This document shows, piece after piece, positions 6,557 to 27,883 of a stretch of 64,000 nucleotides of DNA; the stretch's first letter is position 1, and each line of letters begins with the position of its first letter. The notes under the pieces were generated by a model, which was not told the DNA's origin, made no database searches, and was given only the letters and a program-made list of their open reading frames with translations. The position numbers were made by a program, and so were the translations under genes. The stretch is from Zoogloeaceae bacterium (GTDB lineage: Bacteria > Pseudomonadota > Gammaproteobacteria > Burkholderiales > Rhodocyclaceae): assembly GCA_016791005.1 (NCBI GenBank), contig JAEUNY010000179.1, positions 253 to 64,252 of the forward strand, written 5' to 3'.

Positions 6557-8350
6557 TTACGAATCTGAGACCTTTGTGCGACGAGACAGTTCCGCGCGCT
6601 GCTGAATCAGGTCTCGGTACCTGGAAAGCTCCTCCAAAGACAGGCCTTCAGCCCCCGCTTTGCGTTGCATGGCCTGGAATTCCCGATCCAAATGACTCCA
6701 GCGTAGGTGGCTCACGGCGTCCTGAAAAACTTGTTCCGTGACGCTGCTTTCAAACTCTTCGTCAAGGCTTTGACCGACTTGTTGGGCGAGGACCGCTTCG
6801 TGCGGGGACTCGCGAAAATATTCCATCACCGTCGCGAGACTGCTCTGTGTGGACAACTCACCCACGTCAATTCCATCCACAAGTGCGGTCAGCGCTCGCG
6901 CCTCATCGGTGTCCGACGGTAACAGGGCGAGAGGAATGCGCGGCGCGAACACCGGATGGTGGGCAACGAGGCGCAGCAGGGTCCCGATTACCGTCGATGG
7001 GCTACTACGGCGCGACGGTTTGGGGGTTCGGACTATTGAAGGCTCCGGCCGAACTGGCGCGGGTGAAGGCTTCAGTCCCCAGGCGGATTCCAACTCAGGC
7101 TGGCTGAAGCCAGCGGCTTCCGAGACCATCTTGATGAGCTGCAGACGGAGGAGGGGGGCCGCGACGCGTTCGACGTAGGCCTTGGCTTCATGGGCAAAGC
7201 GGGCTCGCCCTTCGGCGGTAGCCATGTCGACCTCGGATTTCAAGCCGGCAATCAGGAACTCGGGTAGCGACTGCGCGCTATCGACCCGCTGCGCGAACTC
7301 CGTGGTGCCGTGGGCGCGGACAAAGGAATCAGGATCGTGCTCGGCCGGAAGGAGGAGGAAAGCGACTTGTTTGTTGTCAGCCAGGGATTCCAGGGTTCCT
7401 GCCATGGCCCGCCAGGCCGCTTTGCGTCCCGCGGCGTCGCCGTCGAAACAGAACACCACCCGGTCGGTATGACGGAAAAGGGCGTGGATGTGAGCGCTGG
7501 TGGTGGCGGTGCCCAGGGTTGCGACGCTCTGACCCACGCCGAATTGGGCGAGGGAGACGACATCCATGTAACCTTCGACGACGATGGCATGGCCGGCACT
7601 GCGGATTGCCTGGCGGGCCTGGAACAGCCCGTAGAGTTCTCGCCCTTTTTCAAATACGGCAGACTCCGGGGAGTTGAGGTACTTCGGCTCCCCGCTCTCC
7701 AGAATCCGTCCGCCAAACCCGACGATCTGCCCGCGGCCATTGACGATGGGAAACATGATGCGGTCGCGAAATCGATCATAAAGGCGGCCGCCCTCATGCT
7801 TGATCACGAGTCCGGCGTCGACCAAGGCGGGGACTTTTGGATAATCAGAGAAAATGGCAGAGAGTGACTGCCAGCCGTCTGGCGCGTAACCGATCCCAAA
7901 GCGTGCGGCGATATCACCGGTCAGTCCGCGTTGCTTCAGATAGTCGATGGCCCGAGGTGCATGCTTCAGCTGGTCACGATAAAAGCGAGCGGCCTGAGTC
8001 AGCACGTCGAGCAAAGGCGAGAGCTTCGGCTCCAATGCCGCGGCGCCCGATGACTGACGGTCATCGGGGACAGTCATGCCCGCTCGGGACGCGAGCTCCT
8101 TGATCGCCTCGACGTAGCCAAGACCCTGATATTCCATCAGAAAGCTCACTGCTGTGCCGTGAGCCCCGCAACCGAAACAGTGATAGAACTGCTTCGTCGG
8201 ACTGACTGAAAATGAGGCGGATTTTTCGCTGTGAAACGGGCAGCAGGCGAAATAGTTGGCCCCTCCCTTTTTCAAGGGTACGTAGGCTTCGATGACGCTG
8301 ATGATATCCACCCGACCCAGCAGATCCTGAATGAATGATTGGGGGATCAT
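6557..8350 (-). CDS. dnaG: DNA primase
   Basis: N-terminal zinc ribbon CCPFHSEKSASFSVSPTKQFYHCFGCGAHG and the TOPRIM EGYMDV motif. It sits in rpsU-dnaG-rpoD synteny. Confidence 0.96.
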   Translation of the reverse strand: MIPQSFIQDLLGRVDIISVIEAYVPLKKGGANYFACCPFHSEKSASFSVSPTKQFYHCFGCGAHGTAVSFLMEYQGLGYVEAIKELASRAGMTVPDDRQSSGAAALEPKLSPLLDVLTQAARFYRDQLKHAPRAIDYLKQRGLTGDIAARFGIGYAPDGWQSLSAIFSDYPKVPALVDAGLVIKHEGGRLYDRFRDRIMFPIVNGRGQIVGFGGRILESGEPKYLNSPESAVFEKGRELYGLFQARQAIRSAGHAIVVEGYMDVVSLAQFGVGQSVATLGTATTSAHIHALFRHTDRVVFCFDGDAAGRKAAWRAMAGTLESLADNKQVAFLLLPAEHDPDSFVRAHGTTEFAQRVDSAQSLPEFLIAGLKSEVDMATAEGRARFAHEAKAYVERVAAPLLRLQLIKMVSEAAGFSQPELESAWGLKPSPAPVRPEPSIVRTPKPSRRSSPSTVIGTLLRLVAHHPVFAPRIPLALLPSDTDEARALTALVDGIDVGELSTQSSLATVMEYFRESPHEAVLAQQVGQSLDEEFESSVTEQVFQDAVSHLRWSHLDREFQAMQRKAGAEGLSLEELSRYRDLIQQRAELSRRTKVSDS

Positions 8351-15935: not shown

Positions 15936-15949
15936 TTGATCTGCATCAA
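15936..15949 (+). promoter_or_regulatory. FNR/Anr box upstream of ccoN
   Basis: Perfect TTGAT-CTGC-ATCAA palindrome, 103 bp (box end to ATG) upstream of the ccoN ATG. This fits a class II FNR promoter, with the centre near -41.5 and a 5' UTR of roughly 70 nt. Confidence 0.8.
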
Positions 15950-21360: not shown

Positions 21361-21600
21361 ATGTTGAAATTGATTCAGGTGCTATGGCCGTCTTTTCTGG
21401 TGGCCGGACTCGCGGAAATCTTATTCTTTACCGTGATCAATCCGCAGGAGCTTTACCTCCTTGGTACCCCGGTCAGGTTTTCGCCTCTCGCAACCTATTC
21501 GATCGGCTTCTTCGGATTCTGGCTGGTCTGTGCGGCCTCTAGCCTAATGACCTTGTTCTTCCAACGGACGGCGGACGAAATCAACCATCCGGAAGGCTAA
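21361..21600 (+). CDS. Hypothetical small membrane protein (79 aa, 2 predicted TM)
   Basis: GGAGG lies 4 nt upstream of the ATG. There are two hydrophobic segments. I recognise no family. Confidence 0.55.
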   Translation: MLKLIQVLWPSFLVAGLAEILFFTVINPQELYLLGTPVRFSPLATYSIGFFGFWLVCAASSLMTLFFQRTADEINHPEG

Positions 21601-22182: not shown

Positions 22183-22196
22183 TTGATGGGCGTCAA
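22183..22196. promoter_or_regulatory. FNR/Anr box shared by divergent uspA and phaC
   Basis: TTGAT-GGGC-GTCAA, one mismatch from consensus. The centre is about 62 bp from the uspA ATG and about 95 bp from the phaC ATG at 22284. Confidence 0.65.
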
Positions 22197-22283: not shown

Positions 22284-24050
22284 ATGCAGAATGGGTCGAA
22301 GAATGGCCACGGCAACCACCACGGACGGAGCCTAGTGTCGCCACCGGTGGTTGCCGAGGTGGCGATGAAGGTGCTTCACGATTCGATCGAAGGGGCGGTG
22401 GATCCCCTTGGGATGATGGCCCCGATCGTCCATGCGCAGTTGGCCTGGATGGCCCATCCTCAAGAGCTGGCAGAGCGTTTGGTGGGCCTCTCTGCGGACC
22501 TTTGGGCCCTACACCTGCACTCCTGGCGACGGGCGTTCGGGATCCGGGACGCTGATCCCATCCGGCCCCATGAGGACGATACCCGGTTCGCGGACCCGGT
22601 TTGGACCGAATCTGCGGCTTGGGACATCCTGAAGGAGCATTACCTGGCTTTCACCCGCCATACCCAGGACATGCTCTACGCAACTCCGGGGCTCTCCGGC
22701 AAGGAACGTCGGCGGGCCGCCTTCTGGTGGCGGAAATGGCTGAATGCCATGGCTCCGACCAATTTCCTGTTCACCAATCCGGAAGCCATCCGTCTGGCGG
22801 TTGAGACCCAAGGGGAGAGTCTGCGTAAAGGGTTCATGAATTTCCTCGCGGATATTGAGCGGGGTGACGTGCGGATGGCCGATGCAAGCCATTTCACGGT
22901 TGGCGAGAACCTCGCCACGACAGCGGGAGCGGTGGTGTATCGGAGCGATCTCCTCGAAGTGATCCATTACGCTCCACGCCAGGCTTCGGTACATGGGCGC
23001 CCCGTTGTGATCATCACGCCGTGGATCAATAAGTTCTACGTTCTGGACCTCGAGCCGAAGAAGAGCATGGTGCGATACCTCCTCGATCAGGGGCTGGATG
23101 TCTTCATTACCAGTTGGCGCAACCCTGGCCCCGAACTCGCAGACACCCGTTTCGATCGCTACTTGCAGGACGGAGTGGGGAAAATCATCGAGGTGGCGCA
23201 ACGGGTGACCGGCAGCGCCAAAGTCCACGCGATTGGTTACTGCCTCGGCGGGACGGCGCTGGCAATCTACATGGCCTGGGCGAATCAGCACTTCCTGCCG
23301 GAATCGGTGCCGGTGGAGGATTGGACCCTGTTCGCCACGATGGTGGATTTTCGCCGCCCGGGGGACATCGAGGTGTTCATCGATGAAGCCAGCGTCGGAT
23401 TCATCATCTCGAACATGGCGCGTAAGGGTTACCTCGACGGGAAGGAGATGGCGGCCGCCTTTCGGTTGCTTCGCTCGAACAGCCTGATCTGGCATTACGT
23501 GGTTCATGGCTGGCTCTACGGCGAAGCGCCGCCGCCATTCGACGTGTTGTACTGGAACATGGACACTACCCGGATGCCGTACCGAATGCATGCGTGGTAC
23601 CTGCGGGAACTCTATTTGAAGAACCAGTTGGTGCAGGCGGACGCCCTGACCGTCGCGGGTGAGCCCATCGATCTCGGGCGAATCGTCCAACCTCTCTACG
23701 CCGTGGCGGCCCAGGACGACCATATCGCCCCAGCCCAGCAGACCTTCTACATCCACAACTACGTCAAGGGGCCCAAACGCTTCGTCCTCTCCAGCGCGGG
23801 CCATATCCTCGGGATCGTCAATCCGCCTGTGATTCCGCCCAAGCGCCGCTACTGGACGGCGGAAGTGCATCGCACCGACTCCTACCGGAGTTGGCGGGAG
23901 CGCGCCGAGGAGCATGAGGGCAGTTGGTGGGGCGACTGGATGGACTGGCTTAAGCCACGCAGCGGTGAGTTGGGTCCGCCACCCCCATTGGAGACCGAGG
24001 ATTTCCCGGCTCTTGGGCCGGCACCTGGGGCCTACGTGCTGGAGCGTTGA
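22284..24050 (+). CDS. phaC: Class I poly(R)-hydroxyalkanoate synthase
   Basis: Lipase-box GYCLGG plus the conserved ITPWINKFYVLDL and WNMDTTRMP motifs. The start at 22284 (MQNGSKNG) is preferred, but 22239 is possible. Confidence 0.92.
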   Translation: MQNGSKNGHGNHHGRSLVSPPVVAEVAMKVLHDSIEGAVDPLGMMAPIVHAQLAWMAHPQELAERLVGLSADLWALHLHSWRRAFGIRDADPIRPHEDDTRFADPVWTESAAWDILKEHYLAFTRHTQDMLYATPGLSGKERRRAAFWWRKWLNAMAPTNFLFTNPEAIRLAVETQGESLRKGFMNFLADIERGDVRMADASHFTVGENLATTAGAVVYRSDLLEVIHYAPRQASVHGRPVVIITPWINKFYVLDLEPKKSMVRYLLDQGLDVFITSWRNPGPELADTRFDRYLQDGVGKIIEVAQRVTGSAKVHAIGYCLGGTALAIYMAWANQHFLPESVPVEDWTLFATMVDFRRPGDIEVFIDEASVGFIISNMARKGYLDGKEMAAAFRLLRSNSLIWHYVVHGWLYGEAPPPFDVLYWNMDTTRMPYRMHAWYLRELYLKNQLVQADALTVAGEPIDLGRIVQPLYAVAAQDDHIAPAQQTFYIHNYVKGPKRFVLSSAGHILGIVNPPVIPPKRRYWTAEVHRTDSYRSWRERAEEHEGSWWGDWMDWLKPRSGELGPPPPLETEDFPALGPAPGAYVLER

Positions 24051-24290
24051 CCTCGGTCAAACGGGGTATTCCCTCGCCTCAAGTTTCAATGGTGGGGTCC
24101 GATAGGCTTCGGGCAGGGCGGGCCGATTTCCGCCTGCATTGATGCGCGGTTCGGTCTGCGGCATGGACGTTTGGTCGCCTCGCGCACTGTCTGAATTGAC
24201 CTAAGGACGTCAGACCATGTTGCCATCCCTTGCCCATCTGATGCTGGTGGATGTCCCCTCGGGACTTGGGCGTGACTGTGCGGGCCTTGC

Positions 24291-24929
24291 ATGAACGCGC
24301 CCGAATCCTTCTTCCAAGCGGCGGCCGGTGTTTCGTCCGAATCCCAGCTTGCGCGCATCGTTCGCTCCAACGAAGAGATCAAGTCGATCGTTGCGACGGC
24401 GTTCAAGATCAATCTGATGGCCTTGAACGCGATCTTTCTGGCCAAGCGGGCGGGAACCGCCGCGCTGGGATTTGGGGTGCTGTCAAACGAGTTGCGGCGG
24501 TTTGCCCAGGATCTGACGCAGCAGATGGCATTGCTGCGGGAGATGACGGCGGAGTCGGTGACCGCCGTCTCCAGCCTCATGCAGCAGCGCCGCCTCGATC
24601 GCATCCTGGACCTTGCCGTGCGGGCCTGCGAAGGGAAGGAAATTGCCGGCCTGGACGTCGTGATGGCTCGGGCCGAAGCGGCGTTCGGTGAGAAGTTTCA
24701 AAGACTCCGGCAATTCGACAAAGTCCTGCATCGCGCGCTCGAATCCACCGGGCAATTGGTCGAGCTCGGCGGGGTCCTGGCCCGCTCCGCCAAGATCGAG
24801 GCCGCCTACGGGGGCCAGTACAGTTCGTCCCTCATGCAGGTATCGACCGATTTCGCCGAAGTCATCGACCAGATCAAACTCTCGCTGGAGAAGCTGACCC
24901 GCGAGCGCCTCATCAAGGAGGGTTCATGA
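24291..24929 (+). CDS. Soluble 212-aa protein with MCP signalling-tip-like motif only (mini-receptor-like)
   Basis: IVATAFKINLMALNAIFLAKRAGTAALGFGVLSNELRRFAQDL resembles the MCP hairpin tip ([31 protein letters not shown]). I see no TM or HAMP segment. An in-frame stop at 24273 prevents a longer N-terminus. Confidence 0.6.
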   Translation: MNAPESFFQAAAGVSSESQLARIVRSNEEIKSIVATAFKINLMALNAIFLAKRAGTAALGFGVLSNELRRFAQDLTQQMALLREMTAESVTAVSSLMQQRRLDRILDLAVRACEGKEIAGLDVVMARAEAAFGEKFQRLRQFDKVLHRALESTGQLVELGGVLARSAKIEAAYGGQYSSSLMQVSTDFAEVIDQIKLSLEKLTRERLIKEGS

Positions 24930-25660
24930 AGCAATGTCGCACCATTTTCCAGGACGGGGATCATCGCTGGCTGGCTATCGTCCGGGACCCGAATCGGGCC
25001 GGACATGTCATCGACACCAATGAGTATCTGATCGAGTCGGGGGCCGAATCGCTGCTTTGCGATCCGGGGGGCATCGAAATTTTTCCTGCGGTGTTTTCAG
25101 CGCTCTGTGCCGAAACTGACCCCAATCGCGTCCGGGCCATCTTCGCCTCCCACCAAGACCCGGACATTATTTCCTCCCTGGCGCTGTGGCTCGATTTCAA
25201 CCCGGAGCTGAAGTGCTATACGAGTTGGCTCTGGGCGTCCTTTTTGCCCCATTTTGGCGGGACCGCGGAAACCTTCGCCTCGCTTCCCGATGAGGGGGCG
25301 TCGATCCGCATTGGCGACCTGGATCTCGAGGCCGTGCCAGCCCACTACCTCCACTCGTCAGGCAACTTCCACCTTTACGATCGGGGCGCCAAGATTCTCT
25401 TCAGCGGCGATGTGGGGGCAGCCCTGCTGCCGCCCGACCAGGATGACCTGTACGTGAAGAATTTCGACCAGCACATCCAATATGCGGCCGGTTTTCACCG
25501 GCGCTGGATGGGTTCCAACGAGGCCAAGCGGCGCTGGTGCGAGCGGGTCGCCGTCTTGAATATCGACATGCTGTGCCCCCAGCATGGCGCGATTTATCAG
25601 GGTGAGGATGTCGCGCGTTTCATCGACTGGTTCGACCAACTGACCGTAGGCGTGGTCTGA
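24926..25660 (+). CDS. Metallo-beta-lactamase-fold, flavodiiron-core-like protein without flavodoxin domain (ODP-like)
   Basis: DTNEYLI, SHQDPD, PAHYLHSSG, LFSGDVG and CPQHGAI align with the flavodiiron-protein ligand motifs as I remember them. The ATGA overlap with the upstream gene indicates translational coupling. Confidence 0.7.
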   Translation: MKQCRTIFQDGDHRWLAIVRDPNRAGHVIDTNEYLIESGAESLLCDPGGIEIFPAVFSALCAETDPNRVRAIFASHQDPDIISSLALWLDFNPELKCYTSWLWASFLPHFGGTAETFASLPDEGASIRIGDLDLEAVPAHYLHSSGNFHLYDRGAKILFSGDVGAALLPPDQDDLYVKNFDQHIQYAAGFHRRWMGSNEAKRRWCERVAVLNIDMLCPQHGAIYQGEDVARFIDWFDQLTVGVV

Positions 25661-25678
25661 CGCAGTCCTGACCCCCAG

Positions 25679-25717
25679 GAGCCGGCCGGCCAAGCATCGG
25701 TCGGCTCTTTTCTTTCC
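25679..25717 (+). terminator. Rho-independent terminator after the ODP-like gene
   Basis: GAGCCGGCC-N11-GGTCGGCTC stem (one G-U pair) followed by TTTTCTTTCC. Confidence 0.6.
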
Positions 25718-25789
25718 GTTTTGGGTCTTTGATAAGCTGGTTAGTCCCACGGTGCGCTGGGTTGGATTGATCCTTAAGTGCTCCGGTCC

Positions 25790-25985
25790 TTTTGGCCAGG
25801 TTTTGCAGATGAACTCATAGGGTGTCGGGCCCTTGAGCGTGTCGCCCCGCTGGAATTGCAACTCTCCTCGGCTGGTCCTTTTCTCTCGTTGCCGCCACGA
25901 TGCCGGCCCGATCAGCCCCTGCGAGTTCGCTAAATAGCGGGAGCCTCGAAAGATATCCGGGGATATCAATCTTGTCTGAGGCCAT
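25790..25985 (-). pseudogene. Frameshifted remnant of a Crp/Fnr-family (cNMP-binding domain) regulator
   Basis: One frame gives MASDKIDIPGYLSRLPLFSELAGADRAGIVAATRE. A -1-shifted frame continues KRTSRGELQFQRGDTLKG. Joined, they resemble the start of a cNMP-binding domain. No intact ORF or HTH follows. Confidence 0.35.
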
Positions 25986-26069
25986 GGAAAATCCCTCGGG
26001 TGCGGCGAAATCTTTTTGAACGCCCACGGGAGTCGCTGGGGAGCGGCTCCATTTTGCAAAGGTTTCGCC

Positions 26070-27869: not shown

Positions 27870-27883
27870 TTGACCTGGATCAA
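27870..27883. promoter_or_regulatory. FNR/Anr box in the fnr-hemN divergent region
   Basis: TTGAC-CTGG-ATCAA. The centre is about 63 bp upstream of the hemN ATG (class II geometry) and about 49 bp from the fnr ATG, which fits autoregulation. Confidence 0.75.

Follow-up and report, generated by a model that had tools for sequence, protein, structure and literature searches.

The closest described relatives of the system considered here are the ODPs of Treponema and Thermotoga, which were reportedly characterized as sensors by Muok et al. in 2019 and are said to adopt apo, diferrous, and O2-bound (peroxo) forms. PMC7666581 and PMC6978683 present ODP as an auxiliary Fe/O2 sensor that makes conformation-dependent contact with a soluble, sensor-less methyl-accepting chemotaxis protein (MCP) modulating CheA, and a summary of the 2019 study in PMC7319448 already describes operons of ODP with MCP genes. 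Here, we analyze a pair of adjacent open reading frames, ORF1 and ORF2, in a stretch of 64,000 nucleotides from a Zoogloeaceae bacterium (GenBank assembly GCA_016791005.1, contig JAEUNY010000179.1, positions 253 to 64,252; hereafter the window). ORF2 encodes an ODP and ORF1 a small protein with homology to the hairpin tip of MCPs, and we think it on balance probable that the two work as an O2/Fe(II) sensor for the Che pathway in which ORF1 is a tip-only, single-chain mini-MCP. An earlier note on this DNA, made from its letters alone, had considered the pair its best candidate for an uncharacterized system; as a kind of system, it is not uncharacterized, since the ODP–MCP operon association as such has been published (as summarized in PMC7319448) and only the receptor variant is undescribed. 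No mini- or tip-only MCP and no proteobacterial ODP pair was found in the searched literature, and as far as this literature shows, the new elements are the miniature build of the partner and the different genomic settings in which it occurs.

Identity of the two proteins and their linkage across genomes

ORF2 unambiguously belongs to the ODP family. It matches the Pfam ODP profile PF19583 with 243.2 bits (cut-off 27.2), its residues 29–221 covering positions 1–194 of the 194 in the profile, and phmmer aligns it end-to-end with both solved ODPs in the PDB at E-values of 6.2e-65 (6qrq/6qwo) and 6e-58 (6qnm/6r9n), with 42% identity to 6qrq and 39% to 6qnm. Every residue common to the two solved ODPs is present in ORF2, including H76-Q-D78-P-D80, H140, H143, D162, and H220; from knowledge of flavodiiron proteins and ODPs, we take H76, D78, D80, H143, D162, and H220 to be the metal ligands. 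The earlier note had already read ORF2 as a stand-alone di-iron protein of the ODP type with a flavodoxin-less core and an Ile in place of a His, and the profile matches and alignments bear this out: a Pfam scan found no flavodoxin domain in this single-domain protein, and I81 replaces the second His of the flavodiiron motif H-x-E-x-D-H, which here reads H-Q-D-P-D-I. Since the solved ODPs carry Val at that position, the Ile is a signature of the ODP family and no anomaly. The core is metallo-beta-lactamase-like (Pfam Lactamase_B, E = 3.6e-16), and flavodiiron proteins are the next PDB matches at about 1e-6 (T. maritima flavodiiron chains at 4e-6), with NorV at 4e-5 and the NCBIfam model of NorV at 22.6 bits versus a cut-off of 635.

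ORF1 is a member of a discrete, uncurated family of proteins of about 200 aa. A profile search over 1.84 billion representative proteins, in clusters at 50% identity, returned 177 clusters at E<=1e-30 and 589 at E<=1e-10; almost every cluster in the top 150 has a length of 190–215 aa and matches end-to-end, and canonical MCPs appear in the far tail only. There is no NCBIfam model for this family, whose members go by “chemotaxis protein” or “hypothetical protein” in their sources. A chance pair of open reading frames is excluded by the roughly 1200 close homologs of ORF1, about 200–215 aa in length and with many invariant columns, and both frames together with their ATGA overlap are as the earlier note described them. 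The family alignment has two near-invariant blocks (residues 23–90 and 146–202) with a variable stretch between them (96–145), and the Pfam scan found no HAMP, PAS, or other domain in ORF1 besides its partial MCPsignal match. Atypically long family members were inspected for fused domains; none was found, and their extra length probably stems from mis-called starts.

Block 1 can be robustly assigned as a homolog of the MCP hairpin tip, in agreement with the MCP-like stretch that had been noticed in this soluble protein without HAMP or sensor domain. Residues 26–90 match 12 canonical MCPs from related loci at 97.8% in hhalign (E = 1e-12), HMMER aligns block 1 with solved MCPs (TM14, Tsr, and Aer among them) at 7e-11 to 1e-8, and the single sequence of ORF1 matches PDB MCP tips at about 3e-5. 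The match to Pfam MCPsignal (PF00015) is confined to residues 19–95 of ORF1 and positions 24–108 of the 172 in the profile. Tsr numbering, which according to the PDB tip alignments equals ORF1 numbering plus 335, allowed us to compare the family with the CheA-P5/CheW interface residues listed in Table 1 of PMC13098124: the equivalents of I377 (as L42), L380, N381, R388, G390, G395, F396, V398, E402, and R404 are retained family-wide. Within the turn motif, G55, G60, and F61 are kept and the equivalents of E391, G393, and R394 are T, A, and L, respectively, which accounts for the conserved Glu and Arg (E391 and R394) that the earlier note had reported as replaced. Ahead of the tip motif, ORF1 has just some 42 residues, canonical methylation helices have no room in it, and the family alignments place no xWxxF-type pentapeptide at its C-terminus. 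The N27-E28-E29 triplet near the start of helix 1 (24369–24377) is invariant or near-invariant across the family; it could be a deamidation or methylation site because many relatives have CheR, CheD, and CheB genes beside the pair, but it fits the canonical E-E-x-x-A-S/T consensus poorly.

The two genes are strictly linked. An alignment scan for ODPs over one genome per species in GTDB gave 595 relatives, and each of the 80 loci examined (the best 80 of the 595) is immediately preceded on the same strand by an ORF1-family gene, at a distance of −4 to about +30 nt. Four look-ups from the side of ORF1 homologs again led to the mini-MCP–ODP arrangement, so the gene-order conservation proposed earlier as a check on the pair is found throughout, often with translational coupling. 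The closest public relative comes from a Zoogloeaceae metagenome-assembled genome (L007) with an ODP that is 94% identical. In about 25 of the 80 loci, the gene order is cheA-MCP-cheW-miniMCP-ODP-cheR-cheD-cheB, with Gallionella, Sulfuricella, Hydrogenophilales, Methylobacter, and Chromatiales-like Gammaproteobacteria as hosts. Pfam annotation of the Sulfuricella sp. T08 locus reads MCP-cheY-STAS-cheA-MCP(4HB-HAMP)-cheW-miniMCP-ODP-cheR-cheD-cheB-FIST, and a second contig of 1.16 Mb has a similar layout. Consequently, the pair is not the candidate orphan for which the earlier note took it, and the suspicion voiced there that its output may be something other than chemotaxis runs against the che-cluster setting of these relatives. 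Ortega et al. describe the F7-type layout as anti-sigma antagonist, cheY, cheA, cheW, aer2-like receptor, cheR, cheD, and cheB (PMC7184735), and by gene order alone the mini-MCP/ODP pair resembles an occupant of the slot that Aer2 holds in such clusters.

The second recurrent setting is that of the Rhodocyclales (Zoogloea, Dechloromonas, Azonexus, others, and the window itself), where the order is phaC-(NMO)-miniMCP-ODP-(hemerythrin)-sirB-fnr-hemN beside cbb3 oxidase and fixGH genes. Architecture and length of ORF1 are alike in these stand-alone loci and in the che-embedded ones, and the retained contact and switch residues are present in both groups. The CheW/CheA-P5 contact positions are at least as strict in the stand-alone group (N46 in 58/59, R53 in 57/59, F61 in 59/59, and R69 in 58/59 members) as in the che-embedded group, which argues that the stand-alone proteins have the same partner. 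The stand-alone loci do not all share any other gene that could serve as a partner.

Several features of individual loci deserve mention in their own right. In one subclade (L004 at 6751–8004, along with L045, L046, L052, L054, L059, L061, L062, and L075), a 417-aa NMO-family gene (PF03060, nitronate monooxygenase-like) that the window does not have lies between phaC and the mini-MCP gene; it overlaps the start of the latter by 4 nt, which suggests an NMO-miniMCP-ODP transcription unit. Among the che-embedded clusters, a STAS (anti-sigma antagonist) gene sits between cheY and cheA, and at L088 (13800–16418) and L087 (15705–18381) cheB is followed by genes for a FIST-domain protein and a PAS_7/HATPase_c histidine kinase. 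These FIST, kinase, and STAS genes hint at a possible non-flagellar output in stress responses or partner switching, as for early F7 systems (PMC7184735). Five Rhodocyclales-type pairs carry the labels Bordetella parapertussis, Nitrososphaerota archaeon, Bacteroidota, Sorangium, and Ignavibacteria (L018, L033, L040, L055, and L069); these metagenome-assembled contigs are probably mis-binned and not genuine occurrences in the taxa named.

Predicted fold of ORF1, proposed mechanism, and competing explanations

Block 2 of ORF1 is probably a degenerate second tip hairpin, that is, the product of an internal duplication. Its segment LARSAKIEAAYGGQYSSSLMQVSTDF (residues 163–188) best matches the tip segment of a 290-column canonical MCP profile, at 35% identity, and the hhalign P-value of block 2 against the canonical tip improved from 0.01–0.04 with 81 sequences to 2.7e-4 with 448 diverse sequences. 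The N-terminal half of ORF1 matches the C-terminal half at P = 6e-4 to 1e-3, one heptad off the canonical register; this internal-repeat signal appeared only with more diverse sequences, as the first alignment of 57 sequences gave none in the same hhalign comparison (E = 0.5), and Pfam MCPsignal finds no match in the C-terminal half taken alone. In the canonical register, the invariant E170 corresponds to Tsr E385, which is lost from block 1, and YGG corresponds to R388–G390. Both AlphaFold models break the helix for three residues at this invariant Y173-G174-G175 (nt 24807–24815), exactly where block 2 aligns with the tip turn. A circular permutation, with block 2 as the N-arm segment of the glycine hinge, was considered and dropped, as the match was weak and the register did not fit.

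AlphaFold2 was run on ORF1 with a 57-sequence alignment and then with a more diverse one of 68 sequences, giving models with a mean local confidence (pLDDT) of 87 and 88 and a predicted TM-score of 0.77 (84–88 pLDDT among the five models of the second run). In both models, helices span residues 13–112, 121–171, and 175–211, with breaks only at 113–120 and at the YGG motif. Fold searches of the PDB with both models returned generic helical bundles only, which we used to infer the overall shape. Foldseek places both models on Maquette-3 (6z0c, chains B and D) at 6.7–6.9 Å over ~195 pairs (TM-score 0.45–0.51), compared to 33.5 Å on the long MCP hairpin of TM14 and 63 Å on that of TM1143; Maquette-3 is a compact single-chain four-helix bundle of about 70 Å in length (PMC7994573). 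We then compared idealized C-alpha models of three candidate shapes with the root-mean-square deviations to Maquette-3 and TM14. A long hairpin lies at 37 Å from the maquette and 3 Å from TM14, a three-helix bundle with a protruding helix at 33 Å and 25 Å, and an up-down-up-down four-helix bundle at 13 Å (ungapped) and 35 Å, so that among these shapes the four-helix bundle is the only one to fit the observed pattern.

The predicted topology thus comprises h1 (13–55), a very tight U-turn at ~56 in the tip motif, h2 (57–112), a loop (113–120), h3 (121–171), a turn (172–174), and h4 (175–211). In such a model, both turns would lie at the same end with the conserved blocks forming the lower ~30 residues of all four helices, a short two-helix stalk would be built from the variable portions of h2 and h3, and ORF1 would reproduce the N-C-N′-C′ topology of an MCP dimer tip within one chain. 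The earlier note had puzzled over an N-arm far shorter than the C-arm: the tip motif does come after only those few residues, but the supposed long C-arm is probably a second tip hairpin (hhalign and models), and the puzzle is explained if the C-terminal half folds back in this way. ORF1 is predicted to be all-helical, and its models fit a compact four-helix bundle and not a long hairpin. A long hairpin with its turn at 113–120 had been our first reading and was dropped on the covariation rerun, the Maquette-3 shape, and the idealized geometry.

From these models and alignments we infer the four-helix topology, an ODP docking site, CheA/CheW binding, and the physiological output, as follows. 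ORF1 and ORF2 would constitute a two-protein cytoplasmic O2/Fe(II) sensor feeding a Che-type pathway. The ODP would bind two irons via the six presumed ligands and, like the ODPs of Treponema and Thermotoga, would shift in conformation between apo, diferrous, and O2-bound (peroxo) forms. Its cognate transducer would be ORF1, with two tandem MCP-tip hairpins packed into a compact four-helix bundle, so that a single natural chain, devoid of sensor, HAMP, and methylation helices, could imitate the kinase-control tip of an MCP dimer. Hairpin 1 keeps most of the CheW/CheA-P5 contact and tip-switch residues of canonical receptors, hairpin 2 would have diverged into a family-specific surface that we propose as the dock for ODP, and the state of the ODP would be passed straight to CheA/CheW at the baseplate of the array. 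In the Zoogloeaceae/Rhodocyclales lineage, the pair may have moved from a che cluster to an island of microaerobic respiration genes. The output of the pair is probably the Che pathway.

Several observations weigh against this explanation. The MCPsignal match of ORF1 has an E-value of 1.9e-7 and only 31.5 bits, below the gathering cut-off of 34.6, so that the profile search suggested in the earlier note gave a significant hit that still misses the Pfam threshold; the same holds for six of seven other family members tested (P0304, P0362, P0296, P0256, P0305, and P0365, at 23–31 bits). Surveys that apply this threshold will miss the partner of ODP in these proteobacteria, since most members score below it. 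Among the tip residues, E385 (always hydrophobic), E391, and G393 are replaced, plus R394 in this copy. However, Tsr mutants E385I/L/M still assemble trimers and complexes with altered signaling (PMC6681711), so the replacements do not exclude array binding. The secondary-structure string has helix 13–112 unbroken, the U-turn at residue 56 being deduced solely from the superposition statistics. A first covariation run at an effective sequence number (Neff) of 83 found h1×h4 and h2×h3 enriched and h1×h2 couplings absent, an enrichment that was not reproduced at a Neff of 212. The statistics of the internal duplication are modest (P = 1e-3 to 3e-4), and in HMMER block 2 can alternatively be aligned, if weakly, with the glycine-hinge segment of Tsr and Aer. 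No che genes were found by tblastn over the 64-kb window with CheA, CheW, CheR, CheD, CheB, CheY, and MCP queries (one apparent CheR match traced back to a spurious, mis-clustered ORF). Finally, we know of no experimentally studied member of the proteobacterial mini-MCP/ODP clade.

The lack of che genes in the window also speaks for a different output of the same two proteins, in essence the idea of the earlier note; once outside the che cluster, they could have been exapted as an O2/Fe (or NO) sensor for PHA (polyhydroxyalkanoate) synthesis or for cbb3/HemN-linked respiration, acting via hemerythrin, SirB, or an Fnr-linked partner. The pair of the Rhodocyclales lies consistently within phaC-(NMO)-pair-hemerythrin-sirB-fnr-hemN, the NMO-family gene even overlaps the mini-MCP start in the L004 subclade, and the equivalents of E385, E391, and G393 are lost, all of which would suit a break with chemotaxis. 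We nevertheless regard this as unlikely, because the stand-alone group retains the CheW/CheA-P5 contacts N46, R53, F61, and R69 and shares architecture and length with the che-embedded group, because the longer members have no fused output domains, and because no alternative partner gene recurs across all stand-alone loci.

Two further explanations concern the proteins themselves. ORF1 could be a homodimeric hairpin with arms 13–112 and 121–211 and its turn at 113–120, in which the tip motif would be straightened mid-helix opposite the YGG kink in the manner of a glycine hinge, with the ODP-coupled Che input unchanged. The unbroken helix 13–112 (pLDDT 95 at residues 51–60 in the second model), the well-matched arms (about 100 and 91 residues), an enrichment in the first covariation run that lay only on the anti-diagonal at i+j near 225–243, with nothing for h1×h2, and the weak HMMER alignment of block 2 with the glycine-hinge N-arm of Tsr and Aer all speak for it. 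Still, we find it quite unlikely: models that superpose at 6.7–6.9 Å on a 70-Å bundle and at 33–63 Å on long hairpins are, by the idealized geometry, incompatible with a hairpin of 150 Å, block 1 is homologous to the segment that makes the U-turn in every solved MCP, and the covariation is not reproducible. Very improbable in our estimate is that ORF2 is an enzyme, be it a di-iron scavenger of O2, NO, or peroxide or a metallo-hydrolase, with ORF1 as a structural or chaperone-like helper. The fold of the metallo-beta-lactamase superfamily, the distant likeness to flavodiiron NO/O2 reductases, and a neighborhood relevant to oxidative and nitrosative stress would suit an enzyme, but ORF2 lacks any electron-input domain such as a flavodoxin, shares about 40% identity with ODPs characterized as sensors (PMC7666581 and PMC6978683), is strictly coupled to an MCP-derived gene, and lies between cheW and cheR in many genomes. 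We therefore continue with the two-protein O2/Fe(II) sensor for the Che pathway.

The operon and its surroundings in the window

The features of the pair and the candidate regulatory sites around it are compiled in the following table.

Table. Coordinates of the ORF1–ORF2 locus and of FNR-type boxes in the window.
Feature	Position	Strand	Basis or remark
ORF1, mini-MCP, 212 aa	24291..24929	+	six-frame ORF list and sequence
Block 1, residues 26–90, MCP hairpin-tip homolog (protein-interaction region), contains FKINLMALNAIFLAKRAGTAALGFGVLSNELRRFAQDL	24366..24560	+	Pfam, PDB tips, hhalign
Turn motif R53-A-G-T-A-A-L-G-F-G62, equivalent to Tsr R388–A397	24447..24476	+	alignment, Tsr numbering
Variable region, residues 96–145 (upper h2/h3, loop 113–120; indels between members)	24576..24725	+	alignments, AlphaFold
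Block 2, residues 146–202, LVELGgVLARSAKIEAAYGG..S..L.QVS.DF	24726..24896	+	invariant columns; hhalign of C-terminal half vs canonical tip
Shine-Dalgarno AAGGAGG plus ATGA stop/start overlap	24915..24929	+	sequence; would allow ORF1/ORF2 translational coupling
ORF2, ODP, 244 aa	24926..25660	+	six-frame ORF list and sequence; Pfam PF19583; PDB 6qrq/6qnm
H76-Q-D78-P-D80, first metal-ligand motif of ODP	25151..25165	+	unchanged in both solved ODPs
Intrinsic-terminator-like hairpin, 13 pairs (8 G-C), then T-run	25677..25709	+	likely 3′ end of the operon
FNR-type box, perfect match, upstream of ccoN	15936..15949		box search
FNR-type box TTGATGGGCGTCAA, 1 mismatch, usp/phaC intergenic	22183..22196		box search
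FNR-like box TTGACCTCGGTCAA with 2 mismatches, located at the stop codon of phaC and 237 nt 5′ of the ORF1 ATG	24047..24060		doubtful relevance
FNR-type box, 0–1 mismatch, fnr/hemN intergenic	27870..27883		box search

The stop codon of ORF1 and the start codon of ORF2 share the ATGA at 24926–24929, and the AAGGAGG at 24915–24921, 4 nt 5′ of the ORF2 ATG, reads as a strong Shine-Dalgarno sequence. Via this overlap, ORF1 would be made in amounts coupled to those of ORF2. The terminator that the earlier note had placed at 25679 corresponds to a terminator-like hairpin with T-run directly after the ORF2 stop, and it is this position that is meaningful, given that terminator-like sites in the region are no more numerous than in shuffled sequences.

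Pfam scanning of the window confirmed the neighborhood described before, with FixG/FixH, Usp, and PhaC upstream of the pair and SirB, hemerythrin, an Fnr/Crp-family regulator, HemN, DsbD_2, and a CcoI-type P-type ATPase downstream, just as the tblastn searches over the 64 kb agreed that no che genes are in view. A 79-aa hydrophobic ORF without Pfam match lies between fixH and usp at 21361–21600; small unannotated genes (DUF3149, 88-aa product) occupy the same fixH/usp position in L004.

Direct control of the pair by FNR, as the FNR-controlled block of the earlier note would imply, is not supported: the box at 24047–24060 has two mismatches and is not conserved in relatives, where FNR boxes upstream of the ORF1 gene occur at 6 of 57 loci versus 16% of control windows and are thus neither enriched nor conserved. 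Only three related loci (L008, L010, and L036) have boxes like the one at 22183–22196, at about −2000 to −2165. As the stretch from phaC to ORF1 contains no predicted terminator, a phaC-ORF1-ORF2 transcript from the usp/phaC box could exist, and co-transcription of the pair from the phaC promoter is possible. The count of FNR-type boxes across the window is no higher than chance, and the intergenic ones at ccoN, usp/phaC, and fnr/hemN would fit an FNR-controlled microaerobic island. In 23 of 57 Rhodocyclales-type loci, a conserved FNR-type box (e.g., TTGATGGCGGTCAA) lies directly 3′ of the ODP stop and 5′ of the hemerythrin gene, at roughly +1350 to +1420 nt relative to the start of the mini-MCP gene in L010–L075, and the fnr-hemN intergenic region holds a second conserved site in relatives. 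No such box is present at 25661–26015 of the window, where the terminator is followed by sirB and then by the hemerythrin gene.

Significance and comparison with known systems

To our knowledge, all receptors studied to date send their signal to the tip down a long helical bundle, and how the tip switches CheA is an open question in chemotaxis. If our explanation is correct, ORF1 would be a minimal, asymmetric model of tip-to-kinase control, with ~200 residues and a separate soluble sensor, which would be tractable for structural biology, in vitro reconstitution, and the design of synthetic sensors. ODP-based sensing of O2/Fe(II) would then extend from spirochetes and Thermotoga to many Beta- and Gammaproteobacteria of environmental importance (Zoogloea, Dechloromonas, Azonexus, Gallionella, Sulfuricella, and Methylobacter), and F7-like chemosensory clusters would have a di-iron alternative to Aer2 in a protein family that largely escapes annotation by Pfam thresholds. 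More tentatively, and at somewhat less than even confidence, we propose that ORF1 stands for a natural class of “tip-only” receptors, single chains of two diverged tip hairpins that would take their input by direct docking of ODP near the array baseplate and not via transmembrane, HAMP, or methylation helices; those of the Rhodocyclales would have been detached from the che operon and integrated into a microaerobic island, where they may link the Che kinase or another partner to respiration and PHA.

Among known systems, TDE2498/TDE2496 of Treponema denticola and ODP/TM14 of Thermotoga maritima (6qnm, 6qrq, 6qwo, and 6r9n; TM14 in 3g67) likewise have a stand-alone ODP, 39–42% identical to ORF2, whose gene is coupled to that of a cytoplasmic MCP without transmembrane or sensor domain; operons of an MCP gene with ODP are described in PMC7319448 and PMC7666581. 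TM14 forms a canonical homodimer of long hairpins, the tip of which lies mid-chain (around residue 108 of a 213-residue construct), whereas ORF1 has about 42 residues before the tip, a probable second degenerate tip, a predicted compact bundle, no space to house methylation helices, and a Pfam score under the threshold. Furthermore, the clade of the ORF1/ORF2 pair belongs to the Beta- and Gammaproteobacteria, unlike the systems of Treponema and Thermotoga. Flavodiiron proteins such as FprA, ROO, and NorV have the beta-lactamase-like di-iron core in common with ORF2 at the level of a weak match, but they carry a flavodoxin domain and the H-x-E-x-D-H motif, while ORF2 is an ODP family member with no flavodoxin and H-x-D-x-D-I.

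Natural receptors with two MCP signaling hairpins in one chain are not without example, as DosM of V. cholerae cluster I is such a soluble protein (reportedly described by Briegel et al. in 2016, as cited in PMC10653840), long and with its hairpins pointing in opposite directions so that they bridge two baseplates. For ORF1, in contrast to DosM, the prediction puts both turns at one and the same end of a single short bundle. Closer in topology is the engineered single-chain receptor scTsr, in which one chain supplies all four bundle helices (PMC4692393), as we propose for ORF1; such single-chain receptors are laboratory fusions of full-length receptors or kinase-control modules, whereas ORF1 is natural, limited to the tip, and composed of strongly diverged halves. 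In terms of gene order, the pair corresponds to Aer2/McpB (F7/Che2-type; P. aeruginosa, V. cholerae, and others), which holds the same slot between cheW and cheR-cheD-cheB as the pair does in relatives (PMC7184735). Both kinds of cluster also have cheY, STAS, and cheA, and both inputs are cytoplasmic and O2-sensing, but Aer2 joins a PAS-heme domain, HAMP, and a 36H hairpin in one polypeptide, whereas the pair distributes sensing and signaling over two proteins. This division of labor is shared with CetA/CetB of Campylobacter and CetA2/CetB2 of M. gryphiswaldense, where a separate cofactor-bearing sensor likewise works with a partner MCP-type transducer (PMC12442639), although the Cet sensor is a PAS-FAD protein, its transducer is a membrane-anchored full MCP, and neither has any sequence relationship to ODP or mini-MCP.

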